Assembly: GCA_964551435.1 (NCBI GenBank)
Contig: CAZKBS010000009.1
Location: forward strand, 709-64,708
DNA length: 64,000 nucleotides
Reading direction: 5' to 3'
DNA from: an uncultured Micavibrio sp.
Lineage (GTDB): Bacteria > Pseudomonadota > Alphaproteobacteria > Micavibrionales > UBA2020
A program made the translations under genes and the position numbers. Numbering within the stretch: position 1 is the first letter of the stretch; every line of letters begins with the position of its first letter. The notes beneath the pieces are model-generated. The model was given only the letters and a program-made list of their open reading frames with translations, was not told the origin of the DNA and did no database searches. Below are positions 5,543 through 64,000 of the stretch, one piece after another.

Positions 5543-5678
5543 CAGCGCTGCATCCGGGGTGGCGAAACGCGCGCCGCCCTATTATTATCTTGATGGCTCT
5601 GCTGTCCGCGCTGCGGGCATGGGGCCTTGCCTCTGTTTTTACCTTTTCCCGCCCTAAAAAGAAAGAAAAATAGCCGCC

Positions 5679-10200: not shown

Positions 10201-10718
10201 TGCTGCCGGGTATCACCGCGAAGCTGGAAAAGATCGAGGGGATTGATGCACCCAATACCGGCAAGCTGATCATTCATGGCCCGAACATCATGAAGGGTTA
10301 TCTGAAATCCGACGCCCCCGGCATGCTGCAACCGCCCGAAGGCGGCTGGTACGATACCGGCGATATCGTGGCGCAGGACGAAGCGGGCTATATCACCATT
10401 CAGGGACGCATGAAGCGTTTCGCCAAAATCGGCGGTGAAATGGTCTCGCTGACAGCGGTAGAAAGCGCGCTGCAAAAATTGTGGCCCGACACGCAGCATG
10501 CGGTTGTCAGTGTCAAGGATGACAAAAAAGGCGAAAAGCTGATTTTGTTCACAACGCAGCCGCAGGCGGCGTCCGAAGACATCACGCGTCATTTCCGCAG
10601 TCTGGGTATCAACGAGCTGTCTATTCCGCGCCAGATACAGCAGGTGGCGGAAATCCCGCTGCTGGGCACGGGCAAGACGGATTACGTGACCCTGCAAAAA
10701 CAGGCGGCGGCGCTTTAA
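7278..10718 (+). CDS. aas: Tripartite fusion: LplT-like MFS lysophospholipid transporter + PlsC-type acyltransferase + acyl-ACP synthetase (Aas)
   Basis: The N-terminal ~400 aa are multi-pass MFS. The centre carries an HX4D acyltransferase motif (NHTSFLD) and FPEGRIT. The C-terminal region carries AMP-binding motifs (FTSGSEGAPKG, GYGATE, GGEMVS). Confidence 0.87.
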   Translation: MSILKSRRFLPLFVTQFLGAFNDNLFKNAMVMLITFRLAEQAHMSPQLLVTVAAGVFILPFFLFSATAGQLADKYDRARIARMVKLAEIALMALASIGFVTGNIWILMFLLFGMGTHSAFFGPVKYAILPQHLKADELLAGNAYVEAATFLSILLGTIAGGLLVMAERGEWVISIAIVSVAIAGYFASRQIPEAPGPSPDLQVNPKFWSETGRMMRDTQTDVAVYRCILAISWFWLVGATYLTQFPSYAKDYLHSNETVVTLLLTLFSIGIGVGSVLCEKLLKGRVQLTYVPLAAIGMAIFGVDLYFATGHEASHVAGAGELVTAATFAATTGGMRVMADLFLIAVCGGMFVVPLYAMVQQRAKGAMLARTIAGLNVMNSLFMVVSAVVCVILIQMAFTIPAIFLVMALCNILVAIYIVHLLPEDLMRSVARAVLGWAYGVEIKGMENFEAAGKRVLIVANHTSFLDAALIAAYLPVKITFAVNTHVADKWWIKPFLTLVDAFPLDPTNPMAIKSLVEEVRQDKIAMIFPEGRITVTGSLMKVYEGPGLIADKAQARLLPIRIDGAQYTPFSRLRGKVNIRWFPKITLTVLPPCDFQLPEDARGRRRRQLAASKLYDLMSGMMFEASDSNETLIRALMRARRLHGGKHVVCEDPQRQPMDYQRLISAAFAFARVLNRQIPAARADASVPAVGVLLPNMTGTVLTFFALHIMRRAPAMLNFSAGPANIVSACQTAELTHVISSRRFVEMGKLVPVVDAIEGAGVSMIYLEDVRSRIGLGDKLYGLAARLWPELMERMCKPAATPDDAAVVLFTSGSEGAPKGVVLSHRNIRANCHQIGSRVDFGPTDIVFNCLPMFHSFGLTGGTLLPILSGLRAFYYPSPLHYRIVPELIYDTNATILFGTDTFLGGYARFAHPYDFHAIRYIFAGAEKLKEETRKIYAEKYGVRIFEGYGATETAPVISINTPMHNKPGSVGRLLPGITAKLEKIEGIDAPNTGKLIIHGPNIMKGYLKSDAPGMLQPPEGGWYDTGDIVAQDEAGYITIQGRMKRFAKIGGEMVSLTAVESALQKLWPDTQHAVVSVKDDKKGEKLILFTTQPQAASEDITRHFRSLGINELSIPRQIQQVAEIPLLGTGKTDYVTLQKQAAAL

Positions 10719-34176: not shown

Positions 34177-34959
34177 ATGAAACGCTTGTTTGCCATTTGT
34201 CTGGTGATTTTCTCTGTTGCCGCGGTTTCTCAGGCAGTGGCAAAAAAAGTTGCTGCCGAACCCGCCGTGCCTGCGGCGGCGCAGAATGCGGCAGGAGATT
34301 ACGTGGTTCTGATGCATGGTATCGGGCGCAGCCCTGCAGCCATGCGTAAGATGGAAACGGATCTGCGCCGTCGTGGCTATGCGGTTTTGAACCTCGGCTA
34401 TGACTCGCGGAAATATGACCTTGATACGCTTGCGGCGCGCATGCAGCCCGATGTCGAAGCCTTTGCCGCCGATAAAGGCCGCAAGCTGCATTTCGTCGGG
34501 CATTCTATGGGTGCGCTGGTTATTCGTACCTATCTGCAGAAGTACAAGCCGGAAAATCTGGGCCGCGTGGTTGCGCTCGGCAGTCCGAACGGCGGCAGCG
34601 AAGTGGCAGATTTTCTCAATAAAACGGGGATTTTTCAAAAAATATATGGCCCCGCGGGCCAGCAGCTGCGCACGTCCTACGAAATCTATAAAACCTTCGG
34701 CAAGCCGTTTTATGATATCGGCGTGATTGCGGGTGACCGCACGATTGATCCCATTTCATCCATCATCATTCCCGGCGATGACGATGGCAAGGTGTCGATT
34801 GCCAGCACGCATATTGCCGGTGAAAAAGACCATATTGTGCTGCATGCCAACCATGCCACCATGCCGTCGAATGCGGCGGTGGTGATTGAAACCGCGCATT
34901 TCCTCAAATACGGGTTTTTCAAGCGGGACGGGGTGAAAAAAGAAAATCATGCTCCTTGA
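34177..34959 (+). CDS. Exported alpha/beta hydrolase (lipase/esterase-like)
   Basis: Signal peptide MKRLFAICLVIFSVAAVSQA, HG oxyanion region (VVLMHGIG) and nucleophile elbow GHSMG. Confidence 0.75.
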   Translation: MKRLFAICLVIFSVAAVSQAVAKKVAAEPAVPAAAQNAAGDYVVLMHGIGRSPAAMRKMETDLRRRGYAVLNLGYDSRKYDLDTLAARMQPDVEAFAADKGRKLHFVGHSMGALVIRTYLQKYKPENLGRVVALGSPNGGSEVADFLNKTGIFQKIYGPAGQQLRTSYEIYKTFGKPFYDIGVIAGDRTIDPISSIIIPGDDDGKVSIASTHIAGEKDHIVLHANHATMPSNAAVVIETAHFLKYGFFKRDGVKKENHAP

Positions 34960-35176
34960 ACAATGGATCAGCCGCGACGATGACGTCATGAGCGGCCAGA
35001 CGGTTTTTCGCGGCACGCGCGTACCGGTGGCGGTGCTGTTCGATAATTTGCAGGACGGGATGCGGATGGAGGAAATCCTCGAAGCCTATCCATCCATCCC
35101 CGCCGATGCGGCGGCGGCGGTGCTGTCCTATGCGCTGCGCGTGATCCTTGAGCAAACGGGTGAACAGCAGCCATGA
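34949..35176 (+). CDS. DUF433 protein (antitoxin-like)
   Basis: 75 aa. VMSGQTVFRGTRVPVAVLFDNL...MEEILEAYP matches my recollection of DUF433. It overlaps the hydrolase end by 11 nt. Confidence 0.7.
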   Translation: MLLEQWISRDDDVMSGQTVFRGTRVPVAVLFDNLQDGMRMEEILEAYPSIPADAAAAVLSYALRVILEQTGEQQP

Positions 35177-35577
35177 TAAAAATTCTGGTCGATGAATGCC
35201 TGCCTGTGAAAATGGTCGAATGGCTGCGCGCAGGCGGCTTCGAAGCGCGCAGCGTCGCGCATATGGGCTGGAGCGGCCGCAAGGATGCCGATATTCTGAC
35301 GCTGGCGGAGCGTGAAGGTTTTTCCGTGCTTCTGACCGCCGATGCCAATATGAAAGACCAGCACCGCTTCGAACACCGTGAGCTCGCCGTGCTGGCGCTG
35401 CCTGCCAACCGCCTGCAAACGGTCGAGGGCATCGTGCCGCAGGTTCGTCACTCGCTTAAAAATCTGGCGCCGGGTACGTTTACGGTGATGGATTTTACGG
35501 CAGCGACAGATTGGCGCGCAGCGGCGCCTGCGGGTGAAAACCGGCAGGGCGGCGTGACGTATCACCGCTTTAAATAA
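35173..35577 (+). CDS. DUF5615 / PIN-like (Mut7-C-like) protein (toxin-like)
   Basis: MIKILVDECLP N-terminus with acidic residues spaced as in PIN-like domains. ATGA overlap with the DUF433 gene. Confidence 0.68.
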   Translation: MIKILVDECLPVKMVEWLRAGGFEARSVAHMGWSGRKDADILTLAEREGFSVLLTADANMKDQHRFEHRELAVLALPANRLQTVEGIVPQVRHSLKNLAPGTFTVMDFTAATDWRAAAPAGENRQGGVTYHRFK

Positions 35578-35595: not shown

Positions 35596-36591
35596 TTAGA
35601 TGCCGAGCGAACCTTGCTTCGGCTTGTCGGGCGCGTTTTTGGGTGCGGGCTTTTCATCCGGCGTGAACTGCGTGGCGCTGACGACTTTCCAGTGCATGTC
35701 CAGAAATACAACGGGGTTGTTTTCATCCAACTCTCGCCGCGCGCGCTGCGCTTCGTGCCAGTGCAGGGACGGGCGGGCGATCAGATGCACAACCTCGCCG
35801 CGCAGGGTCTGGCGGAATTTATCGTCTGTATCGGCACGCTGCAGCATCACGATGCGCTGGCCGGGCTTTTTGAAAATGTTGACGGGGGTGCCGCGCAAAG
35901 CCTTGGTGCGGCCTTCGCGGCTGCCTTCGGTCGCGTTAAAACGGATAAGACGCGGGAAATCGGTGATTTCCTGCACGCTGTGAATGGCATCGGGGCCGTG
36001 CGGTTTGTGCTGGCGCGGCGTCGATTGCATGGTCAGGTACATGTTATTCAGCAGGGTTCTGAATTTGTCTTTGCTGTCGATGATGAAATCTTCGAGCGGC
36101 AGGGTCTTTCCCTGATAGTTCACGCGGGTTTTTGCGCGTGCAGCGTCACCGCCCTTGTCGGTGATGGTTTCGATGTAGCTTAGCATATCCTCGACATTGC
36201 GCGCGCCGACGGCCACGTAATCGCGCACCTCGTTGGTGCTGGACTGGCATACCAGCGCGCCCGCGACACCGTTAAAGTTTTCCATCAGGCGGACGTTGAG
36301 GTTGATAACGATATTCTTGCCTTCGCGTATGGCCTGTTCCAGCGACTTGCGGTGTTTCGCCTGAATGGCGAGTTCTTCGTGCGCGTTGCAATCGGTGATG
36401 TGGTCTTTGACGTTCTTGGAAAAGAAATGCGCGCTTTTCAGGGCGAGGCTGCCATGTGTCAGAGCTTCGCGGCGGAACCCCATATGGGCATTGCAATCGG
36501 GGTCGGCACAGAGAAGGTCGCTGCCGTGCTCTTCTTTTTTATACTGATGCGCCAGAAGAACCTGTCCGTCCGGCAAGCGTGCTTTTTTCAT
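35596..36591 (-). CDS. 331-aa orphan with N-terminal CX4C...HX3C motif
   Basis: Uninterrupted ORF convergent with the TA-like pair. The translation has balanced, protein-like composition. No recognisable catalytic domain and no signal peptide. Confidence 0.6.
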   Translation of the reverse strand: MKKARLPDGQVLLAHQYKKEEHGSDLLCADPDCNAHMGFRREALTHGSLALKSAHFFSKNVKDHITDCNAHEELAIQAKHRKSLEQAIREGKNIVINLNVRLMENFNGVAGALVCQSSTNEVRDYVAVGARNVEDMLSYIETITDKGGDAARAKTRVNYQGKTLPLEDFIIDSKDKFRTLLNNMYLTMQSTPRQHKPHGPDAIHSVQEITDFPRLIRFNATEGSREGRTKALRGTPVNIFKKPGQRIVMLQRADTDDKFRQTLRGEVVHLIARPSLHWHEAQRARRELDENNPVVFLDMHWKVVSATQFTPDEKPAPKNAPDKPKQGSLGI

Positions 36592-36710
36592 GTCAGATGC
36601 CCCCGCAAATGCGCATTTAACATAACAAAAATTCCGGTTTTTGGCAAGGTTTTGTCCCGCCTATGGTGGCCAGATGCCGGAAATAATTGAAATATCTCTA
36701 AAAAAAGTAA

Positions 36711-36745
36711 AAGGGCCGGTGTTACGGACCGGCCCTTTCTTCTTG
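36711..36745. terminator. Orphan perfect 10-bp hairpin (bidirectional terminator-like)
   Basis: AAGGGCCGGT / ACCGGCCCTT with a 7-nt loop. TTTCTTCTT follows on the plus strand and TTACTTTTTTT follows on the minus strand. Confidence 0.65.
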
Positions 36746-36979
36746 AAGACACCCTCTATCAAGAAACTTCTTCGATAGCAAAGGAGATCGCTTGAATCGA
36801 AGATTCCCGAATATCAAAAAACGCCGATTCTGGTCAAGACACTTTCTCAAAAAAATCAATATTTTCACAATAATAACAGGTGGCGGGCAAGCAGCGCGGC
36901 AGGCCATTTGACTCGAAAACGGACGCTGTTTGGCGTACAGTCGGCACAGAAAAACCGCTCAAAAAACAAAGAGGGAAAC

Positions 36980-38386
36980 ATGTCTTCTGAAACTTTCGAC
37001 GTTGTGGTGATTGGCTCCGGCCCCGGCGGCTATGTCTGCGCGATCCGCGCCGCGCAGCTGGGTCTCAAAACCGCCTGCATCGAAAAAGACAACACGCTGG
37101 GCGGTACCTGCCTCAACGTCGGCTGCATACCCTCCAAGGCGCTTCTGAGCGTATCCGAGAAATTTGCACACGCAGAGCATGACTTCGCCGGTCTTGGTAT
37201 TGATGTGGGCAAGCCGAAGCTTGATCTCAAAAAAATGATGACCCACAAAGACAAGGTGGTTGCCGCCAATACGCAGGGCATCAGCTTCCTGTTCAAGAAA
37301 AACAAGGTCACCCATATCGTGGGCACGGGCAGCATCAGCGCCCCCGGCACGGTCGAAGTTAACGGCAAGGACGGCAAGAAAACTATCGGTGCCAAAAATA
37401 TTGTGATTGCGACGGGTTCTGAATCCACGCCGCTGCGCGGGATTGAAGTTGATGAAAAAAATATCGTCACCTCGACCGGCGCGCTGGCGCTCGATAAGGT
37501 GCCGGCCAGCCTTGCCGTGATTGGCGGCGGTGTCATTGGCCTTGAAATGGGCACGGTCTGGCAGCGTCTGGGCGCGAAAGTCACGGTGATCGAATTCCTC
37601 GACCGCGTATTGCCGGGCATGGATGGTGAAGTGTCCAAAGAGATGAAAAAAATCCTCGCCAAACAGGGCATGGAATTCAAGCTGGGCACGAAAGTCACCG
37701 GTGCAGAAACTAAAAAAGGCAAAGTCACCCTGACGCTGGAGCCTGCGAATGGCGGGACGGCGGAAAAGCTGGAAGTCGAAACCGTCCTGCTCGCGATTGG
37801 CCGCCGCCCTTATACGGCGGGCCTCGGTCTTGAAAAAGTCGGCGTCAATGTCGACAACCGCGGCATGGTGCAGATCGACGACCATTTCCAGACCAATGTC
37901 CCCGGCATTTATGCCATCGGCGACGTGGTGCGCGGCCCCATGCTGGCGCATAAAGCCGAAGACGAAGGTGTGGTGCTGGCCGAAATCATCGCTGGCCAGT
38001 CGGGCCATATCAATTACGACTGTATCCCCGGCGTGGTCTATACGGCCCCCGAAGCGGCCAGCGTCGGCAAAACCGAAGAACAGCTGAAAGAAGCGGGTAT
38101 TCCCTACAAAGCGGGCAAGTTCCCCTTCATGGCGAATGGCCGCGCGCGCGCCATGGCGGCGACGGATGGCTTTGTGAAAATCCTCGCCCATGCGGAAACC
38201 GACCGCGTGCTCGGCTGTCACATCGTCGGGCCCGAAGCGGGCACGTTGATTGCCGAAGTTGTCGCGGTGATGGAATTCGGCGGCAGCGCCGAAGACATTG
38301 CGCGCATCTGCCATGCGCACCCGACGCTGAACGAAGTCGTCAAGGAAGCGGCGCTGGCTGTCGATGGCCGCCCGATCCACATCTGA
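36980..38386 (+). CDS. lpdA: Dihydrolipoyl dehydrogenase E3
   Basis: FDVVVIGSGPGGY FAD motif and redox-active GGTCLNVGCIPSK. AGAGGGA RBS precedes it (the track ORF starts 24 codons upstream). Confidence 0.96.
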   Translation: MSSETFDVVVIGSGPGGYVCAIRAAQLGLKTACIEKDNTLGGTCLNVGCIPSKALLSVSEKFAHAEHDFAGLGIDVGKPKLDLKKMMTHKDKVVAANTQGISFLFKKNKVTHIVGTGSISAPGTVEVNGKDGKKTIGAKNIVIATGSESTPLRGIEVDEKNIVTSTGALALDKVPASLAVIGGGVIGLEMGTVWQRLGAKVTVIEFLDRVLPGMDGEVSKEMKKILAKQGMEFKLGTKVTGAETKKGKVTLTLEPANGGTAEKLEVETVLLAIGRRPYTAGLGLEKVGVNVDNRGMVQIDDHFQTNVPGIYAIGDVVRGPMLAHKAEDEGVVLAEIIAGQSGHINYDCIPGVVYTAPEAASVGKTEEQLKEAGIPYKAGKFPFMANGRARAMAATDGFVKILAHAETDRVLGCHIVGPEAGTLIAEVVAVMEFGGSAEDIARICHAHPTLNEVVKEAALAVDGRPIHI

Positions 38387-38973
38387 TGCGCACGCGCCTG
38401 ACAGCGGCGGGTTTGTTTTTGTGCGGGCTGCTGGCCTTTGCGCTGCCCGCATTTGCGCAAACCCTGCAGGCACCGGCGCAGCCGGATCTGAAAGCGCAGG
38501 AAGCAAACAGCCTGTTTGACGGGCTTTGTTTGGCCTATCTGGGGCAGGGCAACAAAATGCTCGAACAGGCCTATAGCATTGGCGCGAAGCCGATGCCGTC
38601 TTTTTTCGCCCAGCAGTTTCTGGGGCAGCACAAGGGCGTGGGGCTTGCCATTCAGGGCCGCGGCAGCCTTTATATGCTCGGCCTGACAGAGCAGCCGTCC
38701 TGCCTGATTGCCTCACCGGAAGCCAATGGCGTCTCCGCGCTGCAAATATTCGGCGCGGGCGCGCGGCGCCTGCTGGTAACGGAAGGTACGGTCGATGGCC
38801 AATATCAGCAGGTATATGCCGTCATTAAACAAGATGCCGTCACGGGGCATCAGAAGAGCATGATTGTGATTGCCACCATTTCGCCGCAAGGTGCGCCGGG
38901 TGTTGTGCTGAACGCGCTGCCCGCGCAAACGGCCGAGGCGATGGGAATTGTGCCGGAGAAATGGCCGGAATAA
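38386..38973 (+). CDS. Exported hypothetical protein
   Basis: Signal peptide ending AFAQ. The ATG overlaps the lpdA TGA by 1 nt (TGATG). No recognised domain. Confidence 0.55.
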   Translation: MRTRLTAAGLFLCGLLAFALPAFAQTLQAPAQPDLKAQEANSLFDGLCLAYLGQGNKMLEQAYSIGAKPMPSFFAQQFLGQHKGVGLAIQGRGSLYMLGLTEQPSCLIASPEANGVSALQIFGAGARRLLVTEGTVDGQYQQVYAVIKQDAVTGHQKSMIVIATISPQGAPGVVLNALPAQTAEAMGIVPEKWPE

Positions 38974-46247: not shown

Positions 46248-46381
46248 ATATACATAATCAGATAATTATCGTAATAATTATGCCGCATCGGACGCATTTT
46301 TTGTGCGATAGCGGCTGGTCATGCGCGGACTCTTTTCCTAATATCTAATTCTTGCAAAAAAGAATCAGGAGTTACCCCGCG

Positions 46382-47584
46382 ATGGATTTGCGCATACCCC
46401 GCACGCCCGAAGACGATGCCGGCGGCCCGCCGCTCAACCTTGCCGCGGCGATTGCCGAATTCTATACGGAATTCCCCGAACATCAGAACGATGTATTCAT
46501 CCTCAACCATCAGGCGCATGCGCGCGGCCGCGACGCCGTCGATAGCATCGCGCCGCAGATCGCCGCGCTCCAGCAGCGCCATCCGGAAGCAAAAACCTCC
46601 ATGGCGAAATCAATGGCGCTGGGCGGGTTCGAAGGCAAGCTGCCGATGAGCGTGAATATTTCTGAATCCATGTTCAACCAGAAAGCCGAAAGCGTGATTT
46701 ACGGACGCATCGTTATTCCGGCGGGCGACCAGTTCAGCGCGACGCTGCTGAAGTCCATTTTCGTGGCAGGCGACCACCAGCCCAACAGCCGTTTTCCGAC
46801 GATGGCTGCGGAATATAACAATACCGAAATGTGGCAGCGCTACGTGCTTGACCATGAACTTGGCCATGCGGTGACCATGCTCAAAATCAACAAACAAAGC
46901 ATGAAAACCAGCAGCTTCGGCAACAAAGCCGAATGCGAGGCCGATGCCTATGCGATGATACGCCACTATCAGCGTTACGGCAGCCAGAGCACATTCCCCG
47001 AATATGTGCGCGATCTGCGTAACATGAACGCGGTGCATAAAATGGACGTCACGCACTGGACGTCACGCGCCGTACAGCAGGTGATTGACCTTAACAAACA
47101 GGGCCAGCTGCAAAATCTGACGCCGCAGCAGGCGCGCGATCTTGCTGTTAAAATTGCCGAACAAACGCATTTGTCCACCGATGCCGAAAGCAATATCGGC
47201 CAGGCGTTCAAACCGCTGGTGATGGCGATGGCTTCGAAAAAATTGCCGGAAGGTGATCGCGTGATGACCTTGATCGAATCTGCGGCGCGCATTGGCGCCG
47301 AAACGCAATCGCCCGCGGTGCTGGAAATTTGCAAACTCTACATCCAGCGTATCGGTCATTATGCGCCGCCTCAGCTGCCGCAAACCAAAACGCCGGAGGC
47401 TTTGCGCGCCATGGCGGAAAACGTGAAGGCGATGTCCACCCGCGTCTTGCAAAGCGAACCGGTCGTCACTGGCCTTGGCCGCATTTTCCGTGACGCGATG
47501 ATCGATGCGCAGTCCGGCGCGCACCGCCCGCCGCCGAACGATAACCGCAAGCAGCCGCCAAAACCGCCCAAGCCGCCGCGCTAA
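46382..47584 (+). CDS. Hypothetical protein with HExxH zinc-metallopeptidase-like motif
   Basis: GGAG RBS lies 8 nt before ATG 46382. VLDHELGHAV motif, with ECEADAYAM downstream. No signal peptide. C-terminal KQPPKPPKPPR tail. Confidence 0.55.
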   Translation: MDLRIPRTPEDDAGGPPLNLAAAIAEFYTEFPEHQNDVFILNHQAHARGRDAVDSIAPQIAALQQRHPEAKTSMAKSMALGGFEGKLPMSVNISESMFNQKAESVIYGRIVIPAGDQFSATLLKSIFVAGDHQPNSRFPTMAAEYNNTEMWQRYVLDHELGHAVTMLKINKQSMKTSSFGNKAECEADAYAMIRHYQRYGSQSTFPEYVRDLRNMNAVHKMDVTHWTSRAVQQVIDLNKQGQLQNLTPQQARDLAVKIAEQTHLSTDAESNIGQAFKPLVMAMASKKLPEGDRVMTLIESAARIGAETQSPAVLEICKLYIQRIGHYAPPQLPQTKTPEALRAMAENVKAMSTRVLQSEPVVTGLGRIFRDAMIDAQSGAHRPPPNDNRKQPPKPPKPPR

Positions 47585-48455: not shown

Positions 48456-49118
48456 TTATTCGGCAGCGGGCATCGCTTCTTCGGTTTTGGCGGGGGCGGC
48501 ATCTGTGCTGCTGCCTTCCGCTTTTCCGCCTTTGCGGAATTCGCCGCGCTTTTTGAACTCGCCATCTTTGCCTTTATAGTCGCCCCATTTGCCGCCGCGC
48601 TTTTCAACGCGCTCGCGCATTTTCTTTTTGAAGGCTTCCTGCTCTTCTGGGCTCATGCTTTCAAATTTGGCTTTTTGTTCCTGATGCCACTGTTCACGCA
48701 GCTTTTTATGGCGCTCTTTCAGTGCGGCTTTTTGCTCGTCGCTGAGGGCGTCATACGATGCGCGGGCTTTTTCACGGGCAGCCTGTTTGTCCGCATCGCT
48801 CATGGCCTCCCACGATTTGCGTTTCTCATCCATATAAGCCTGACGCTGTTCGGCGTTCATGCCTTCGAGTTTGGAGAGTTCCTCCTCGCTCGGGATGGCG
48901 AAGCCGCGGCCGCCTTTGACGCTTTTTTCACCTTTGGCGCGGCGCTCTTTTTTCCAGTTCTTGTCGCCGCCGGAAGCAGCATCTTCGGCTTTTTCGGCGC
49001 TCTTGGCCTGTTCCTGCGGTGCGGTGTCTTCCGCGGCTGCAACGGACGAAAAAGCAAGGCCGAAGGTCAGCGCCAGCGCGGGCAGCGAAGCAATCATCAG
49101 GGGGGCTTTGAAGAACAT
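48456..49118 (-). CDS. Exported, highly charged LTxxQ-repeat protein (Spy/CpxP/ZraP-like)
   Basis: Signal peptide, then four motifs MNAEQRQA, MSDADKQA, LSDEQKAA and MSPEEQEA in a K/E-rich helical sequence. AAGGAG RBS. Divergent from the ECF sigma gene. Confidence 0.6.
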   Translation of the reverse strand: MFFKAPLMIASLPALALTFGLAFSSVAAAEDTAPQEQAKSAEKAEDAASGGDKNWKKERRAKGEKSVKGGRGFAIPSEEELSKLEGMNAEQRQAYMDEKRKSWEAMSDADKQAAREKARASYDALSDEQKAALKERHKKLREQWHQEQKAKFESMSPEEQEAFKKKMRERVEKRGGKWGDYKGKDGEFKKRGEFRKGGKAEGSSTDAAPAKTEEAMPAAE

Positions 49119-49365
49119 ATTTATTACTCCTTTGATTTATATAGAAATTCTTTTGGCGGTTGTTGTGCGCCTTCCCCTATGTCACGAGGCTACGGAACAA
49201 ACCATGCGCGAAAAAGGTTTAAAAAAACGTGCCTATATCATACATAAAAACCAGCGCCCGCGCAGGATTTTACGGGGGGCTTCGTGCCAAAAATGGTATA
49301 GGCCCGAACGCCGCAAAACCCCAGGGGGCATATCAGTGTTGCAGCTCAGACCTTCGGACAGGCGG

Positions 49366-49974
49366 ATGCAGGAGCCTTTGAACATAACCCAAAGCATGGA
49401 CGAGGCCCGTGATGACGCCCAGCTCATGTCCCGTATCGCCGCTGGCGACCAGCGTGCCCTGCAGGCGCTTATGCAGCGCCATCTGGGCCGCACCGTTCGT
49501 CTGGCCGCGCGCTTGCTCGGTAGCACGGCCGCCGCAGAGGATGTGGCGCAGGACGCCTTCATCCGCGTCTGGAAACACGCTGACCGCTGGCAAGACCCGG
49601 ACGAGGCGGGCGCCAAATTTTCAACCTGGCTTTACCGCATCGTGCTTAACCTCTGCATTGACGAGAAGCGAAAAAAGACTTTCGGCAATATCGATGACGT
49701 GCCCGAACAAGCCGATAGCACACCCGACGCCGAACGCCAGATGCAGCGGCGCGAACAATCCGCGCGCGTGCAGGCTGCGCTTGCCGAACTGCCGGAGCGT
49801 CAGCGCGCCGCTTTCGTTTTGTGCTTTTACGAAGATTTTTCAAACCGCGAAGCCGCGGACATGCTGGGTATCAGCGTCAAGGCGCTGGAGTCCCTGCTGG
49901 TGCGGGCCCGCAAAACCCTGCGCGACCTTTTGCAGGGCGAGCGGGACGGCAGCGAACAAAGCATCGGGGGATAA
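49366..49974 (+). CDS. ECF-type RNA polymerase sigma factor
   Basis: Region 2 (EDVAQDAFIRVWKHADRW, FSTWLYRIVLN) and region 4 (LPERQRAAFVLCFYEDFSNREAADMLGISVKALESLL). The start is ambiguous (49336 GTG, 49366 or 49396 ATG). Confidence 0.88.
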   Translation: MQEPLNITQSMDEARDDAQLMSRIAAGDQRALQALMQRHLGRTVRLAARLLGSTAAAEDVAQDAFIRVWKHADRWQDPDEAGAKFSTWLYRIVLNLCIDEKRKKTFGNIDDVPEQADSTPDAERQMQRREQSARVQAALAELPERQRAAFVLCFYEDFSNREAADMLGISVKALESLLVRARKTLRDLLQGERDGSEQSIGG

Positions 49975-51430: not shown

Positions 51431-54400
51431 TTAGAAGCCGGGGCGGTATTTGGACCCGCTCAGGCGGCTTGCCGGCGTCTCCGTGTTCGCGGCGGCTTGT
51501 GGTTGTCGCTGGCGCGGATATTTGATTTTCTGGCCGCTGTTGACGGCGGCGCTCGCAACGCTGAAGTCCTTGTCGATGGTGCCGATGCGGCGGACTTCTT
51601 TGCCCTCGCCCATCGCCTGCGCCAGCAGATAAGCGGGCGCATCGCTGCCCAGCGCGGGCTTTGCGACGACATCAAATGACGATGCCAAAGACAAGACGCT
51701 TTCAAAATCGGCGACGCCCTGAATTTTTTGCGCATTTTTCAGCGCCGATGCGCGGCCTTCTTTTTCAAGTCGCCTGAAAAGATCCTGCGCCCAGCTGCGG
51801 TTGAGATTGATGTGATATTTATCCTGATCCGTATGGATGTAGGTATGGTCTTGCGCGGCGCTATAGGCAATCAGCGATGCGCGCGACAGGTTGATGACAT
51901 CGGCGGGTACTTCTTCTTGCCCGATGCCGCCTTTGACAGGATTATCGACAAGGTTCGTGCCGACAACCTCGAAACCTTTTTCGCCGGAAAGTTTTTTCAG
52001 CGCCGCATAGGCCTCTTCGGGCTTTGCCGGGGTGCTATGCACTTCCTGACCGATAACCATATAGAAGGTGTTGTTTTCGGCGTTGAAATAGGCGTCTTCG
52101 ATCATGCTCTTGTGCGCGAAGTGCTTGCCGACGTTAATCACATCGGGCGCGGTTTTGAGCCCTTTATACAGCGCCTCCGCGAATTCTGCGTCTTCGGGAT
52201 GCACAAATCCGGGTTTGCGCGTCGGGCCGTATTTATGGCAGTAGAAACCGGCGTCGCCTTTGACGTCATCTTCGTATTTCAGATAGCCAAGCGCGCGCAT
52301 GTTCAGCACCAGCGTGTCCGCGCCGCCGACAGGCGCTGCAAATCCCGTATCGTTTGCGATCACATCCGCGATGGCGTTGCCTGCTGCGCTGCTGGGCAGG
52401 GCGACGGTATAAAGGTATTTTGCTTCTTGCGGCTTGCCGTTGTCGTCTTCACCGGCGGCGACTTCAAGGAAGTCGTCGAATTCGCGGCTTTCGGCGCGGA
52501 ATTCCAGCGATTTTTTGTCGCTGCTGAGCGAAATGATGGACGCCGCGTACGGGTTAAACCATACGCCCCCCAGATCCAGCAGCGGCGGCTGCGCTTCGAG
52601 GCGGATATTCCCCTCCAGCACATGCGCCGCGCCGTAGCGGTCGATCAGCAAATGGGTGCCGTCTTCAAGCGGCTGCAGCAGCAAAATGGATTTTTGATTG
52701 ATGCTGAAGGTCTCGCCTGTTTTTGGGTCGTCCTCATGCATGAAATCGGCGCGGCGGTGCAGCGCGGCAGCTTGCGCTTCGGTGCCGTTAAAATCGGCGG
52801 TATGGCGGTGCCAGCCGATTTTGGTACCGCTTTGGCTGGTCACGATGCGGTCGATATTCGCCGCGTTGATCAGGCCATCGTATTCGGCCTCGAATCCGCC
52901 TTTGCGCTGAAGCAGTGCCAGCGTTTCGTCGGCCATGTGCTGGCTGACGTTTTCCTGCAAAAGCTGGCCGACGCCGCTGATGGTGAAGCGCAGTGTTTTC
53001 GGCTCGGGGTTGTACCAGATATTGGCGATACGGCCGAGGTTTGTCAGCATGCGCTCTGAATCGAGGCGCACATTTTCGGTGATAAACACAGATTCAATCG
53101 CAGACAGCATGCGGGCGGCCTGTTTGTCTTCGGCCTGATCCGCCGCCGCGTGAAGGATATTGGCGCGTACGATGTCGCTATTATAAGGCTCGACCAGTGC
53201 GGCCAGCCAGGCAAGCTTGTCTTTGTCCTTGAGACTGTCCGACGCAGCAATCTGTTCCAGCCAGCCGCCGGGCGCCGTCAACTGCGGGCGCAGGGCGTCG
53301 AGGCCGCCATTGAGGAAAGCCGTTGCGAGCACAAGGCGCGCCGCCTGAATATCAAACTGTTCGGGGCTCGAGAGGCTGGGCATGATATGTTCGTCAATAA
53401 AGCGGATAACCGCACCATATTCGCTGCGTGCCGGAGCCGTAGATTTGATGGCGCTGCCGCCTACATTCCATTCGTCATGCACGCCGGCTTCGATGGCGGC
53501 CGTCGTCAGAAGGGACAGCATTTTCGGTGCCGCGCCCGTGGCCGGCAGCTTCTCGATAATCGATTCCTGCGGATAGGTCAGCGCCCAGAGCGCCATGAAG
53601 GCATGGCCGGTGCGGCGCGCGCTGATATCGCGCAGCGTATTCAACATGGCCTGCGCATCGCCGTTGTCGGCAGCGGCGGCGAAAGCGGCAACATGTTTGC
53701 TGACGACGGCGTCCTGCATGCCAAGGCCGGTCAGGATTTTCTCGCTCGCCTGGCCGATGCGCGCATGATCGCCGTCAAAACGTGCGGCGATGCGGTAAAA
53801 CGGCGTTTGCGTGGTATTGGCGAGGGGCAGCAGGCTCGTGCCATCTTCGCGCCCGCGCAGTTTTTTGAGCGTTATCTCGAGCGCTTCGGGGTTCAGCGGC
53901 TCGGGCTTCAGCACTTCGCCCAGCACGCGCTCGAAGATTTGTGCACCCGATTGCAGTCCGGCAATTTTAAAGCCGGGTTCATAGCTGAGCGCGGCAGACA
54001 AGAGCGCGATGCGGTCCGCGTCTTTTTTGACATGGGTGAGCGCGAGTTCTGCAAAGCTAGCCACGCCGAAATCGGTCAACAGCAGTTCCTTGCTGCGCTT
54101 GCTTTCCGGCGTTTCGTGGCGCGGGAACAGGGCGGGCATCTGGGCGATGAAACCCTTGATGTCCTGCGTATCCAGTTTGTGGGCAAGGCTGGAATATTCA
54201 AGCGCCTGCGCATTCAGGCGGCGGGTGCGTTCGGTATTAACCTCGTCATAGTCGCGCTGGGCCAGATTGATGACGTACTGCGGGCTTTCGTATTGCTGCA
54301 TCAGGCTGGCCGTAGGGGCTGCGGGGTCTTCCGGTTCCAGATTTTCGCCAATCCAGTCCATGAAGCTGTCGATGTAGTAATGACGGTCGCTTTGCAGACT

Positions 54401-54988
54401 AATCAGCTCGCCGCGCAGCTGGTGCCAGTGACGCTTGACGGCTTCTTCCTTGCGGCGGGCTTCTTCTTCTGGGTCTTGGCCCTTGAACATGCCGCCCAGC
54501 GACGACCAGAAGCCTTTTTTCTGTCCTTCATCCGGCAGGGGCGGGATATCGATACGGGTTTGCAGGCCGATCGCCTCGACCGTGTCGTTGGGTTTGGGTA
54601 CGCGCACGGCGGGCAGGTCTTCAAGAATGTCGGCGGGCACGCCGCGGGGCACGGCCGCCAGCGCTTTTTCAAGCGCGGAATTTTCACCAAAACGCGCACG
54701 CGCCAGGGCGCCGAAATCTTGTAGGTTCAGGATAAAACCGGCGGTATCGCCAAGGTTTTTGAGAACGTCGAGGGCTTTTTTCTCGTCGCGGTCCATTTCA
54801 ATGGCGCGCACAAGACGGTGATGGCCGACAATAATATTATTTTGCTGTTCCGACAGCCAGTCGCGGATGGAATCCGTATTGCGCTCCAGCGTCGAGAGGT
54901 AATCGCCCAGCTGGTCGCGCAAATGCGCGAGGACGTGCACGTCATCCGGCAGTTGGAAGGGTGTCGTCGATGGGGGTTGGTCAGCCAT
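51431..54988 (-). CDS. 1185-aa orphan protein, no recognisable domain, repeated modules in C-terminal half
   Basis: Single uninterrupted ORF with balanced, protein-like composition, whereas the antisense ORFs are Arg/Gly/Ala-rich. No signal peptide or TM segment. Confidence 0.7.
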   Translation of the reverse strand: MADQPPSTTPFQLPDDVHVLAHLRDQLGDYLSTLERNTDSIRDWLSEQQNNIIVGHHRLVRAIEMDRDEKKALDVLKNLGDTAGFILNLQDFGALARARFGENSALEKALAAVPRGVPADILEDLPAVRVPKPNDTVEAIGLQTRIDIPPLPDEGQKKGFWSSLGGMFKGQDPEEEARRKEEAVKRHWHQLRGELISLQSDRHYYIDSFMDWIGENLEPEDPAAPTASLMQQYESPQYVINLAQRDYDEVNTERTRRLNAQALEYSSLAHKLDTQDIKGFIAQMPALFPRHETPESKRSKELLLTDFGVASFAELALTHVKKDADRIALLSAALSYEPGFKIAGLQSGAQIFERVLGEVLKPEPLNPEALEITLKKLRGREDGTSLLPLANTTQTPFYRIAARFDGDHARIGQASEKILTGLGMQDAVVSKHVAAFAAAADNGDAQAMLNTLRDISARRTGHAFMALWALTYPQESIIEKLPATGAAPKMLSLLTTAAIEAGVHDEWNVGGSAIKSTAPARSEYGAVIRFIDEHIMPSLSSPEQFDIQAARLVLATAFLNGGLDALRPQLTAPGGWLEQIAASDSLKDKDKLAWLAALVEPYNSDIVRANILHAAADQAEDKQAARMLSAIESVFITENVRLDSERMLTNLGRIANIWYNPEPKTLRFTISGVGQLLQENVSQHMADETLALLQRKGGFEAEYDGLINAANIDRIVTSQSGTKIGWHRHTADFNGTEAQAAALHRRADFMHEDDPKTGETFSINQKSILLLQPLEDGTHLLIDRYGAAHVLEGNIRLEAQPPLLDLGGVWFNPYAASIISLSSDKKSLEFRAESREFDDFLEVAAGEDDNGKPQEAKYLYTVALPSSAAGNAIADVIANDTGFAAPVGGADTLVLNMRALGYLKYEDDVKGDAGFYCHKYGPTRKPGFVHPEDAEFAEALYKGLKTAPDVINVGKHFAHKSMIEDAYFNAENNTFYMVIGQEVHSTPAKPEEAYAALKKLSGEKGFEVVGTNLVDNPVKGGIGQEEVPADVINLSRASLIAYSAAQDHTYIHTDQDKYHINLNRSWAQDLFRRLEKEGRASALKNAQKIQGVADFESVLSLASSFDVVAKPALGSDAPAYLLAQAMGEGKEVRRIGTIDKDFSVASAAVNSGQKIKYPRQRQPQAAANTETPASRLSGSKYRPGF

Positions 54989-61140: not shown

Positions 61141-61905
61141 ATGCGCGGTTTCTATCGTCTTTCGGCCCTTGGCGCGGCGCTGGTGTTCGTCCTATTGCTG
61201 GCAACGCCCGCCGCCGCGCTGAGGCTATTACCGTTCAAGGCGGCGATTGTGGTGTCTCCGTCTTCTGTCGCCGCAAAGGGCGGTGCGGTGCAGGTCTTCC
61301 GGCTTGAAAACAACACAAACGGCGCCGTCGCGGTCGAGGTTTATGCCGAGACATGGGATGTCGATGCCGATGGCGTTGAAACCAATCAACCCGCAAAGAA
61401 CCTGTTCAGCATTTTTCCGGCGCAGCTGGTCGTACCGCCGCGCGAAAGCCGCGCGGTGCGTGTCGTCTGGCTGGGTGATGCGCCTGCGCGGGAAAAAGCC
61501 TTCCGCCTTGTCGCGGCGCAGCTGCCGGTTGATTTGAAGGACGCGGCGGCAGACGGCGCGGCCGTACGCTTTTTGCTGCGTTTCAAAGCGGCGCTTTATA
61601 TCCGCCCCGCGCAGGAGGTCAAAAGCGATATCCGCGCTGAAACCGCGGAAATACTGCCGGATGGCCGGTTGCGCCTGACGCTGCATAACTACGGCGATGT
61701 GCATGCACTCCTGCGCCGCCCGCGCCTGACGCTGGTGCTGGCGGCGGGCAATAAAATGGAGCTGCCGGAATCTGCATTAAAACCGCTTGAGGGGCAAAAT
61801 ATCCATGCGGGCGCGCAGCGCCTGTTTACCCTTGCCGGATTGCCGTCCTTGCCGCGAAGCGCGGCGATTGCGCGCGCCGAGTTCGCCTATGACGACATGT
61901 TCTAG
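61141..61905 (+). CDS. Periplasmic fimbrial chaperone (PapD-like)
   Basis: Signal peptide. The pattern VQVFRLENNTNGAVAVEV...LVVPPRESRAVRVVW...EKAFRLVAAQLP is typical of pilus chaperones. Confidence 0.72.
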   Translation: MRGFYRLSALGAALVFVLLLATPAAALRLLPFKAAIVVSPSSVAAKGGAVQVFRLENNTNGAVAVEVYAETWDVDADGVETNQPAKNLFSIFPAQLVVPPRESRAVRVVWLGDAPAREKAFRLVAAQLPVDLKDAAADGAAVRFLLRFKAALYIRPAQEVKSDIRAETAEILPDGRLRLTLHNYGDVHALLRRPRLTLVLAAGNKMELPESALKPLEGQNIHAGAQRLFTLAGLPSLPRSAAIARAEFAYDDMF

Positions 61906-64000
61906 TTTTTTTTACAGGGCGCTTTGCGCGCTTTATTTTCTGTGCGTTTTGAACGTGCCCTGTCATGCCGAAGAGGCGGCCGCCCGAATTCCCGTGGTGA
62001 CGGAAGGCCGCCTTGCCGGTTTCGTCGATGCCGTGCAAACACCGGACGGGCATATCCGTATCAAGGCAGAGGGCCTGTCGCAGTGGGTGGAAAACCGCAT
62101 GAATGAAACGGCCGCCGCACAGTTTACGGCCATAACATCCCGCGGCGGCTTTTTGCCGCCGGATGATTTTGCGCCTGCGGGGCTTGCCATCATTTACGAT
62201 GATTTCGATGCTGTTTTGCGCCTGACGCCGGACCCCGCGCAGCTGCGGCGCATGGAAATTTCGGTGAAATCGCCGCAAGTGACGCCCGATGACAGCGTGG
62301 TCATGCCGGCAGCTCTTTCGGCCTATGTGAACCTGCGCGGCGGGGTCGAATACGTATCGGGCAGCGATGCCGCAGGCAATGGCCGCCAGCCCGCGCGGCT
62401 TGATATCGATGGCGCCGTTCACTGGCGCGGCACGGTGCTGGAGGCGCAGGCGGATTATCTTGAAAACGACCCCGACGCCTTCCGCCGTGGCGATGTCCGA
62501 CTTGTGCACGATTTTCCGGCGCAAATGCTGCGTGCGGCGGCGGGTGATCTGTCGTATCCGGTAACATCTTTCCAGTCGTTCCAGCCGATGCTGGGGGTCA
62601 GTCTTGCGCGTAACTTTACGCTCCAGCCTTACCGCGTGACGACGCCGACGGGCGATACGTCTTTTGTGGTTCAATCGCCATCGCGCGTCGATATCCTTGT
62701 CAACGGCCAGCGTATCCGCAGCCTGCGTCTGGACTCCGGCAGCTATGATATCAGCGATTTTCCGGTGGCGGATGGGGCGAATGACGTATCGCTTGTCATC
62801 ACCGATGCGACGGGGAATGTGGAGGTCAAGCGCTTTCCGCTGCTGGGTGACCGCCAGCTGCTCAAACAGGGGCTGCATGCCTATGCCTATAGCGCCGGCA
62901 TTCGCGCCGATAAAGAGAACCGCGATATTAAATACGATGCGGGTGCGCCCGTTTTTTCCGGATTTCACCGCTATGGCGTCAGCGAAACGCTCACGCTGGG
63001 CGCACAGGCGCAGGGCGATGCGGATGTGCAGCAGGCGGGGCTCTCGGCGCTCAAAGCGACAGCGCTCGGGACATTCGGACTGGATGCGGCGGGCAGTCGC
63101 GTCCGCAGCGCAGGGGCGGATGCAGCTTTGCAGCTGTCATACCGTCTGGCGGATGTTACGGCGCGGCGCGATTTTTCGGCGCAGCTGCGCTGGCGCGGCG
63201 ATGATTTTGCGGCGCTGGGGCAGCCGAACCCCGTCAATCCATCCGCAGCGGAGGTGGCGGCACGGTATAATTTTATGATGGGCCAAGCCGTGACAGCAGG
63301 GATTGGCGGGCGTTATCGCTTCGGGCGCGGTAGCGGCGCAGATGACTGGTCATATACATTTACCGCAGGCCGCAGTTTTCAAAAAGGCCTGACCGTATCG
63401 CTGAATGCCGAACATCGGCGGCAGGAGGGTATCGGCGCCTTCGTCACGCTGACATGGTCGCCACCGTCTTCGCCGCATAGTTTTCAGGCGGTCAGCGATA
63501 CGTTTGCGCAGACGCAGGAAGCGCGCTGGGATTATCGACCGGCGCAGGATATCGGCGCGCCGCAAGCCTATGCGGCGCTGCTGCGTCAGGACGGCGGCGG
63601 GGCGCAGGCGATGGGCGGTATCGCCTATCGCGGCTACCGCGGGGAGGCGGCGCTGCGGCATGATATCTACCGCGACATGGATGGCCGCAGCGAAGAGCGC
63701 AGCCAGATGCTGGCAGGTGCGGCGCTTGCCTATGCGGATGGCCTGCTGGCCGTCTCGCGGCCTATCAGCGGCAGTTTTGTGATGCTGCGGCGGCATGAAA
63801 CGCTGGATACGGGGGCGATTGGCATCAATGCGTCGGTTGCGCAAAGCCGGAATGAAAAAGATGCGTTTCGTGCGCGTATCGATGCCTTCGGCCCCGCCGT
63901 TCTGCCGGATGCAACGCCCTATATGTACTATCCGGTGCGCATTGATACGCGGTTTTTGCCTGTGGGATACGATATCGGGCGCGATCTTTATACCGTATTT
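61889..64000 (+). CDS. Outer-membrane fimbrial usher (3' end outside window)
   Basis: I translated this myself; it is absent from the ORF track. ATG 61889 overlaps the chaperone end, giving 704 open codons to the window edge. It has a signal peptide (CHAEEAA) and a Gly/Tyr/Arg-rich beta-barrel-like sequence in the usher position. Confidence 0.72.
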   Translation, partial: MTTCSSFFYRALCALYFLCVLNVPCHAEEAAARIPVVTEGRLAGFVDAVQTPDGHIRIKAEGLSQWVENRMNETAAAQFTAITSRGGFLPPDDFAPAGLAIIYDDFDAVLRLTPDPAQLRRMEISVKSPQVTPDDSVVMPAALSAYVNLRGGVEYVSGSDAAGNGRQPARLDIDGAVHWRGTVLEAQADYLENDPDAFRRGDVRLVHDFPAQMLRAAAGDLSYPVTSFQSFQPMLGVSLARNFTLQPYRVTTPTGDTSFVVQSPSRVDILVNGQRIRSLRLDSGSYDISDFPVADGANDVSLVITDATGNVEVKRFPLLGDRQLLKQGLHAYAYSAGIRADKENRDIKYDAGAPVFSGFHRYGVSETLTLGAQAQGDADVQQAGLSALKATALGTFGLDAAGSRVRSAGADAALQLSYRLADVTARRDFSAQLRWRGDDFAALGQPNPVNPSAAEVAARYNFMMGQAVTAGIGGRYRFGRGSGADDWSYTFTAGRSFQKGLTVSLNAEHRRQEGIGAFVTLTWSPPSSPHSFQAVSDTFAQTQEARWDYRPAQDIGAPQAYAALLRQDGGGAQAMGGIAYRGYRGEAALRHDIYRDMDGRSEERSQMLAGAALAYADGLLAVSRPISGSFVMLRRHETLDTGAIGINASVAQSRNEKDAFRARIDAFGPAVLPDATPYMYYPVRIDTRFLPVGYDIGRDLYTVF

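Follow-up and report, generated by a model that had tools for sequence, protein, structure and literature searches.

In Firmicutes, the regulator YabA, a small non-enzymatic zinc protein, acts through the sliding clamp and contacts both DnaN and DnaA; its roughly 120 aa begin with a coiled coil and end with a zinc domain, and a canonical terminal motif is absent. The consensus of peptides that bind the beta-sliding clamp is QL[S/D]LF, which appears as QLGLF in Pol II and as QLVLGL in Pol IV, where a glycine lets the flanking leucines into the pocket, and the usual position of these motifs is C-terminal (PMC3716654). A different kind of zinc-headed protein is CoiA (PF06054), whose members are PD-(D/E)XK phosphodiesterases with a conserved Asp in beta2 and a conserved Glu in beta3, preceded by a small putative zinc-finger motif at the N terminus; the family is centred on Bacillota and belongs to competence regulons (bioRxiv 10.1101/2024.02.06.579203). 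Here we describe a protein, called X, that is encoded on a 64,000-nucleotide stretch of DNA from an uncultured Micavibrio sp. (contig CAZKBS010000009.1, positions 709 to 64,708; this whole stretch is the window below). X joins a predicted zinc-binding head to a body without detectable relatives and ends in a candidate clamp-binding peptide.

Like the clamp clients Pol IV/DinB, Pol II, Hda (QLSLPL), MutS and NucS, X carries a Gln-initiated hydrophobic terminal peptide after a flexible linker, and its QGSLGI comes nearest to the glycine-containing variant of Pol IV. The folded part of X is unrelated to theirs, being neither a polymerase nor an AAA+, mismatch-repair or PD-(D/E)XK protein, and clamp binding is put forward as a candidate property. 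With single-stranded DNA-binding proteins (SSBs) of the oligonucleotide/oligosaccharide-binding (OB) fold, X shares an architectural logic of folded body, low-complexity linker and conserved terminal docking peptide. Unlike theirs, however, the tip of X is of the clamp type, Qxx(L/M)F, instead of the acidic DDDIPF; X also has an extra zinc head and an alpha/beta region, and its fold matches all stay below threshold (template-modelling (TM) score below 0.45; probability at most 0.38 for the named SSBs). The resemblance to YabA is an analogy of logic only; Pfam and Protein Data Bank (PDB) searches returned no similarity in sequence or architecture. The gene and the parts of its product lie as follows, residue numbers being those of X.

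35596..36591, minus strand: coding sequence of X, 331 aa plus stop, ATG start; a conserved family without prior description.
36376..36591, minus strand: residues 1-72, zinc-ribbon-like module with an invariant Cys-Cys-His-Cys (CCHC) set and predicted metal binding.
36508-36510, 36493-36495, 36400-36402 and 36388-36390, minus strand: the predicted zinc ligands C28, C33, H64 and C68, respectively.
35659..36375, minus strand: residues 73-311, alpha/beta body, from the conservation table and the structural model.
35617..35658, minus strand: residues 312-325, flexible Pro/Lys-rich linker, rich in insertions and deletions (indels), with a predicted local distance difference test (pLDDT) score of 66-81.
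35599..35616, minus strand: terminal hexapeptide Q326-G-S-L-G-I331, by its sequence pattern a candidate Pol IV-type motif for binding the beta-sliding clamp.
36619..36647, minus strand: promoter-like site of X (TTGCCA, 17 nt, TATGTT, with a TG extension), from a motif scan; it lies downstream of a hairpin terminator.

An earlier note on this DNA had described a 331-aa orphan here. The open reading frame (ORF) stands, on the minus strand and from an ATG; the orphan status does not. Among 5.8 billion proteins searched, close homologues form 37 clusters (45-100% identity, 291-357 aa, only one shorter than 310 aa), none with a Pfam domain and all of the named ones called "hypothetical". A profile run exhaustively over 1.84 billion representatives of clusters (50% identity) added depth: 145 relatives pass E<=1e-3, of which 76 also pass E<=1e-10 and 28 pass E<=1e-30. 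The 145 mostly have 290-400 aa, and many align over nearly their full length. Against close orthologues at unsaturated dS (0.5-1.0), the ratio of nonsynonymous to synonymous substitution rates (dN/dS) of X is 0.06-0.08. In the promoter region, the block 'TTATGTTAAA' is invariant across 7 orthologous intergenic regions, in flanking DNA that is unconserved. Given the homologue clusters, this dN/dS and the conserved promoter block, X is a real chromosomal gene under strong purifying selection. It belongs to a new family, moderately widespread in Alphaproteobacteria, which has no earlier description; a literature search found none. Possible LexA, CtrA and DnaA boxes in the promoter region were dropped after inspection by eye, as none gave a convincing match.

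Two public runs labelled as metatranscriptomic RNA-Seq (X4 and X18) cover window positions 34000-38500 in contigs of 13-15 kb, their longest contigs reaching 53-203 kb. Depth along these contigs is flat over genes and spacers alike, as expected of DNA, and the runs are therefore unfit to show transcription. All runs in which 100% of the sampled words were present come from hot-spring metagenomes, whereas samples from bioreactors and wastewater contain near relatives.

One pointer to a function lies at the very end of the protein. X terminates in PDEKPAPKNAPDKPKQGSLGI, its C-terminal peptide being APDKPKQGSLGI, and the tail is rich in Lys and Pro, as had been read from the sequence before. After Q308-F-T-P-x-E313 the family alignment breaks into an indel-rich Pro/Lys/Ala linker (alignment columns ~322-380), variable among homologues in both length and sequence and without predicted secondary structure, and then realigns on Q326. 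This glutamine is invariant in the Micavibrio clade and is followed by x-x-[L/M/F] and then by Phe or x-[L/I/F/M], giving a family consensus of Q-x-x-[L/M]-[F or x-L/I/F]. Within the Micavibrio clade the motif takes forms such as QGSLGI, QQKMDL, QQSLFKF, QQTMFGL, QMNLFKPK and QGTLKF. A clade only ~25-29% identical to X ends in Q-x-x-L-[D/N]-L (LQARLDL, RQPGLDL, TQKGLNL, QQQKLDL), and further distant members end in KQLSLF, QQLKLF, KQLTLGI, TQLSLGI or KQIALF. The motif is thus kept between clades with ~25% identity and unrelated linkers. X itself has both hallmarks of clamp peptides, a Gln-initiated hydrophobic hexapeptide and a flexible terminal location.

We then counted the pattern across the family, looking for a relaxed form (Q..[LMF]F or Q..[LM].[FLIM]) among the final 10 residues of each of the 166 members of at least 290 aa. 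It occurs in 55 of the 166, and in 32 of 37 within the Micavibrio clade; in the interior of these proteins, 0.47% of windows match. When the last 30 residues of each protein were shuffled 500 times, the mean was 1.2 and no shuffle gave more than 7. Restricted to the strict pattern (QLxLF or QLxLxL), the count is 13 of the 166 members where 0.17 would be expected. The motif ends exactly at the last residue in 29 of its 55 occurrences, and it is commoner in proteins that have the zinc site (46 of 114) than in the others (9 of 52; Fisher p=0.004). Judged by these patterns, the tail of X is a statistically supported candidate clamp-binding motif.

At the opposite end of X, the N terminus reads ...LLCADPDCNAHMGFRREALTHGSLALKSAHFFSKNVKDHITDCNAHE..., with the spacings C28-x4-C33, H55-x8-H64 and H64-x3-C68 and the segment A54-H55-F56 in between; the CX4C...HX8HX3C arrangement noted earlier is therefore present. 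In an alignment of 73 sequences with a mean column identity of 17%, C28, C33, H64 and C68 are the sole invariant columns, and they are invariant again in an independent set of 40 distant sequences; F56 is conserved at 96% and H55 at 70%. The AlphaFold model places short beta-hairpins around the knuckles at a pLDDT of 91-97. Four conserved Cys/His residues with beta-hairpins between the knuckles are the features by which zinc ribbons and treble clefs are recognised. Being the only invariant columns in so divergent a family, which is far beyond what chance would give, the four residues have the pattern expected of a structural zinc site of the CCHC type, which we predict here.

Beyond the ligands, the well-conserved positions are D30, R40, H55, F56, N97, N99, P213, R214, T221, A272, P274, W301 and Q308, and the motifs of the body are N97-L-N99, F212-P-R-L-x2-F-x-[A/P]-T221, A272-x-P274, W301 and Q308. 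The family alignment holds no conserved Asp/Glu/Lys constellation, and D30, beside a zinc knuckle, is the sole conserved acidic residue. Without a conserved acidic catalytic set, X is most likely a binder, scaffold or regulator and not a nuclease. X has a pI (isoelectric point) of 9.2 overall and of 10.1 over residues 201-311, its C-terminal domain. It has no signal peptide and no transmembrane helix (the top Kyte-Doolittle mean over 19 residues is 0.77), in agreement with the first reading of the sequence.

One subfamily has lost all four ligands together with the C-terminal motif and has kept the body motifs (LSLN, GFPRL..F.PT, A.P and W...Q). It comprises the homologue at 9001-10053 of locus L034 and the proteins P0112, P0114, P0116, P0128, P0141, P0146, P0154 and P0157. 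The L034 homologue occupies the same M23-X-...-TerC place as a zinc-containing member does in locus L028.

The earlier note could name no motif in the rest of the protein, and our searches bear this out. Scans of X as a single sequence against Pfam, NCBIfam, PADLOC and PHROGs, and a phmmer search of PDB sequences, gave nothing significant. The best single-sequence matches, YTH (E 0.068) and FabI (E 0.017), were dismissed as noise. Profiles made from two X alignments reached E 0.097 and 0.16 at best among PDB sequences, and Pfam scans of 73 members taken singly, and of 10 distant and 10 zinc-less members, found no family common to them.

Nor did the structural model find relatives. A first AlphaFold model from a shallow alignment (pLDDT 75.8) gave only noise in Foldseek and was superseded by an AlphaFold2 model from a deep alignment, with a mean pLDDT of 91.0 and a predicted TM score of 0.87, in which a beta-hairpin-rich head (1-72) leads into an alpha/beta body (74-311), with the tail left unstructured. 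Searched against 350,542 PDB chains, this second model had no match at E<=0.001 (best E 0.19, query TM below 0.2), and against BFVD again none at E<=0.001 (best E 9e-3); the statement that X has no known fold covers these two databases at the sensitivity of Foldseek. The body of X is confidently modelled and has no relatives detectable by sequence or fold in Pfam, NCBIfam, PDB and BFVD. Below threshold, OB-fold matches of the SSB, RPA and KREPA6 kinds recur: Rim1 (6cqo_F) and RPA (8aaj_B) with the first model, and 3k7u_C (probability 0.21), which we take to be an OB-fold editosome protein, with the second. Five phage SSBs stand among the top 36 BFVD matches, at probabilities of 0.06-0.38, all sub-threshold. 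These matches hint at an OB-fold theme in the modelled body, and together with the basic pI (9.2, and 10.1 in the C-terminal domain) they hint at nucleic-acid binding.

Taking head, body and tail together, the reading we prefer, though tentatively and at somewhat less than even chances, is that X binds nucleic acid as a zinc-dependent, non-catalytic protein and is tethered by its tail to DnaN, as its sequence features suggest. The CCHC site would bind one zinc ion and stabilise a small ribbon-like head that binds nucleic acid, and the basic body, maybe with an OB-like barrel, would add a further binding surface. The terminal QGSLGI would slot into the hydrophobic cleft on DnaN, the sliding clamp. 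Such docking could concentrate X on DNA where clamps load, at replication forks and repair patches, where its part would be that of a binder, scaffold or regulator and not that of a nuclease. A bolder and rather improbable extension is that X founds a structurally unprecedented family of sliding-clamp clients, zinc-dependent and non-catalytic, which couples lineage-specific control of replication or repair in these Alphaproteobacteria to loaded DnaN. Its logic would resemble that of Hda and YabA, with an entirely new fold.

Several observations weigh against a clamp-tethered X. Position 2 of its motif is Gly and not Leu, as position 2 often is not Leu in the family at large, and about two-thirds of the members have no recognisable motif in the last 10 residues. 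The hydrophobic C terminus could instead be a degron or the site of another partner. One subfamily, as described above, is without both the zinc ligands and the motif; the OB-like matches are all below significance (best E 9e-3, TM below 0.45); and replication or repair genes are not consistently adjacent to X.

These points lead to a rival in which X is a zinc-finger regulator that binds nucleic acid (a transcription factor, a nucleoid protein or the partner of a small RNA) and its tail serves as a degron or for other docking. The CCHC site, the basic pI and the lack of catalytic residues fit this equally well, and the many members without the C-terminal motif are readily accommodated. Known degrons include the LAA tags of the ssrA type. 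Against the rival, the pattern in X, with Gln at -6/-5, then Leu/Met, then Phe or x-hydrophobic, is specific to clamp peptides (PMC3716654) and atypical of known degrons. We consider a regulator of this kind possible but doubtful, and return to it with the small RNA below.

The earlier note had likened the head of X to that of CoiA, had pointed to a neighbouring toxin-antitoxin (TA)-like pair and had called defence by a single gene, or the targeting of nucleic acids, plausible but unproven. Taken to its full extent, this would make X a nuclease of the CoiA type, or an effector in defence or nucleic-acid targeting that is tied to the TA pair. The likeness to CoiA has a real basis: in CoiA too, the nuclease domain is preceded by a small zinc-finger motif at the N terminus (bioRxiv 10.1101/2024.02.06.579203). 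In X, a Cys pair and an 'HF' segment come before His/Cys, a larger body follows, and the overall length is similar. Such a zinc motif is a generic feature, and the Cys/His head that was read from the sequence is indeed there in X, its four residues invariant in all 73 sequences. The spacing differs, as CoiA presumably has CX2C ... HFxH-x5-C where X has CX4C ... HF-x7-H-x3-C. No hidden Markov model of CoiA (PF06054 and the linked CoiA_N and CoiA_C models, at E<=1) or of any other nuclease matched any of the 73 members, the conserved Asp/Glu/Lys are absent with no sign of a PD-(D/E)XK core, and Foldseek returned no nuclease fold from PDB or BFVD. CoiA is furthermore a competence protein of Bacillota, while X is alphaproteobacterial and has no competence link. 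With profile, catalytic-residue and fold comparisons all negative, the likeness of the two heads is superficial.

The defence part of that proposal fares no better. PADLOC gave 0 families at E<=1, a tblastn search of X against 72,556 plasmids and 50,697 phage records found nothing, and a scan of IMG/VR viral contigs for the family was equally empty; these plasmids, phages and viral contigs are thus without an X homologue. Integrase, restriction or defence genes flank neither X nor its distant homologues in the loci examined. The sole mobile-element genes seen are a transposase gene pair ~8 kb from the zinc-less homologue in L034. Because flanking integrase, restriction or defence genes and plasmid, phage, IMG/VR and PADLOC matches are all missing, the defence or TA reading is unsupported, and the fixed place of X between sucB and lpdA, the housekeeping contexts of its distant members and its strong purifying selection speak against a defence island. 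A nucleic-acid role, the other half of the suggestion, is plausible. As a whole, the CoiA or defence identity is very improbable.

What had tied X to a TA pair is the arrangement at its 3′ side, where two genes run towards it.

34949-35176, plus strand: DUF433 gene, antitoxin-like (E 9.5e-19).
35173-35577, plus strand: DUF5615/PIN_10 gene, toxin-like (E 4.6e-12).

The two overlap by 4 bp, a layout typical of TA pairs, and X is convergent with the PIN-like gene across an 18-bp gap, as had been noted. X is thus convergent and not co-transcribed with the pair, which is present in just 4 of 21 loci (L005, L006, L007 and L023) besides the window, the other syntenic loci being without it. Because it is confined to these four close relatives and the window, the pair is a recent insertion between a hydrolase gene and X and not a partner of X.

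We then compared the surroundings of X more widely. The window is a core region of the tricarboxylic acid cycle, with mdh, sucC, sucD, sucA, sucB, ... lpdA and hutU, and a scan of one genome per GTDB species yielded the 21 loci with X. Nearly all are metagenome-assembled genomes (MAGs) labelled Alphaproteobacteria, Micavibrio or Rhodospirillaceae, the exceptions being one with the label Bdellovibrionales and one that is called just 'bacterium'. Wherever a locus extends far enough for the position to be seen, X lies between sucB and lpdA on the opposite strand; locus L025 is cut after 69 residues of X, and only the lpdA side is visible. In the syntenic loci lpdA is usually followed by hutU, and an alpha/beta hydrolase gene often comes after sucB. 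Across loci X is 44-95% identical, as against 76-97% for sucB and lpdA, and with its place constant X is therefore faster-evolving yet positionally fixed. Another lineage repeats the suc-X-lpdA arrangement around P0040, which is 41% identical to X. Homologues ~20-30% identical to X sit in a different conserved block, DUF3576 - porin - YggS - ... - Smr - (M23 peptidase) - X, near leuS/lptE, and a member of the zinc-less subfamily, X', lies in parB-parA-M23-X'-AAA-TerC. The G+C content at third codon positions (GC3) of X is 0.72, most neighbouring genes having 0.65-0.75. From its fixed sucB-lpdA position, its neighbour-like GC3 and the conserved contexts of its distant members, X is best read as vertically inherited. 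It would be a cytoplasmic, basic protein of Micavibrio-like and a few other alphaproteobacterial lineages.

Micavibrio is a predatory genus, and several of the close homologues belong to MAGs with that label, which raises the idea that X is a secreted effector of predatory bacteria whose tail is aimed at the sliding clamp of the prey. A canonical clamp motif would be expected to act across species, and the disordered C terminus could double as a secretion signal. X has no signal peptide, however, and its zinc site suits a reducing cytoplasm. Very strong purifying selection and core-like synteny are likewise not the diversification typical of effectors, and homologues occur in other lineages and contexts. 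There is little to recommend this idea, and its probability is very small.

Upstream of X, the earlier note had remarked on an orphan hairpin. The hairpin is real; it is no orphan, as it forms the terminator of a small RNA (sRNA) gene on the strand of X.

36699..36837, minus strand: sRNA gene, a promoter-like site plus an RNA of ~105 nt (36699 to about 36805).
36810-36837, minus strand: promoter-like site of the sRNA, TTGAC(C), 16 nt, GATATT.
36709-36739, minus strand: Rho-independent terminator of the sRNA, a GGGCCGG...CCGGCCC hairpin followed by a U-run.

When the lpdA-X spacers of seven orthologous loci are aligned, a block of ~140 nt is far better conserved than its surroundings. The RNA opens with a hairpin whose loop holds an invariant AUCUCC, anti-Shine-Dalgarno-like, followed by a conserved single-stranded stretch and the terminator. 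Built from eight copies, a covariance model, R1, locates the element in each Micavibrio-like locus whose sequence takes in the spacer, always at this position and on this strand, with one to three full-length copies in tandem ~190 nt apart.

7438-7543, 7630-7734 and 7811-7916 of locus L016: sRNA copies; X starts at 8001.
7171-7891 of L003 and 16-497 of L017: three sRNA copies each.
3522-4162 of L022: three sRNA copies and a partial fourth.
3350-3486 of L035: a weaker sRNA copy.

Over 30 copies, 17 of the 33 predicted pairs show changes on both sides that preserve pairing, and 95.2% of alignment cells are paired, as against 44-66% when the partners are slid by 1-3 columns. None of 500 shuffles reached the observed pairing values, though it should be borne in mind that the model was used to fit this alignment. 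That the region might code for protein was considered and rejected because its indels are not multiples of three and its paired positions change in compensation. No family of Rfam 15 passes its threshold in any part of the window, and at the sRNA site itself the only match is PtaRNA1, at 23 bits (gathering score 47, E 0.22). A full-text literature search found no paper on small RNAs in the Micavibrio order. The element at 36699..36837 is thus a candidate new family of structured sRNA, possibly trans-acting.

The sRNA bears on the regulator rival, in which X could be its protein partner. That the sRNA genes stand directly upstream of X, on the same strand, in all Micavibrio-like loci favours such a pairing. 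The loci of distant X homologues contain no R1 element, however, and the suc-lpdA-hut block is wholly syntenic, so that adjacency carries no functional weight in it. Any functional link between the sRNA and X would be hypothetical, and we keep to the clamp-tethered protein as the preferred account of X.

Elsewhere in the window, four large ORFs, at 51431-54988 (minus strand), 5517-7094 (minus), 46352-47584 (plus) and 61826-62968 (minus), encode 1185, 525, 410 and 380 aa, respectively; their GC3 is native-like, and none of them matches a Pfam family at E<=1e-5. A single ORF of 1146 aa at 7278-10718 (plus) combines MFS_1, Acyltransferase and AMP-binding domains and looks like an LplT-like lysophospholipid transporter fused to an Aas-like acyltransferase/acyl-ACP synthetase. 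Right after lpdA, overlapping it by 1 bp, a 195-aa ORF at 38386-38973 (plus) has a signal-peptide-like N terminus and no Pfam match, and is conserved in the closest relatives only (53-83% identity). The ORF at 48859-49974 (plus) is of the extracytoplasmic function (ECF) sigma factor type, with the Sigma70_r2 domain beginning at residue 204; either it has a long N-terminal extension or its start was called too early.

These results remove a false lead, as X is neither a defence gene nor a TA-associated orphan. The sRNA family, new to Rfam 15 and supported by covariation, is an independent and testable regulatory element. X is a compact target for structure determination and, if its tail binds DnaN, would be a new clamp client whose fold matches nothing in Pfam, NCBIfam, PDB or BFVD. 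It would then let one ask which extra step these little-studied, partly predatory Alphaproteobacteria add to the replisome.

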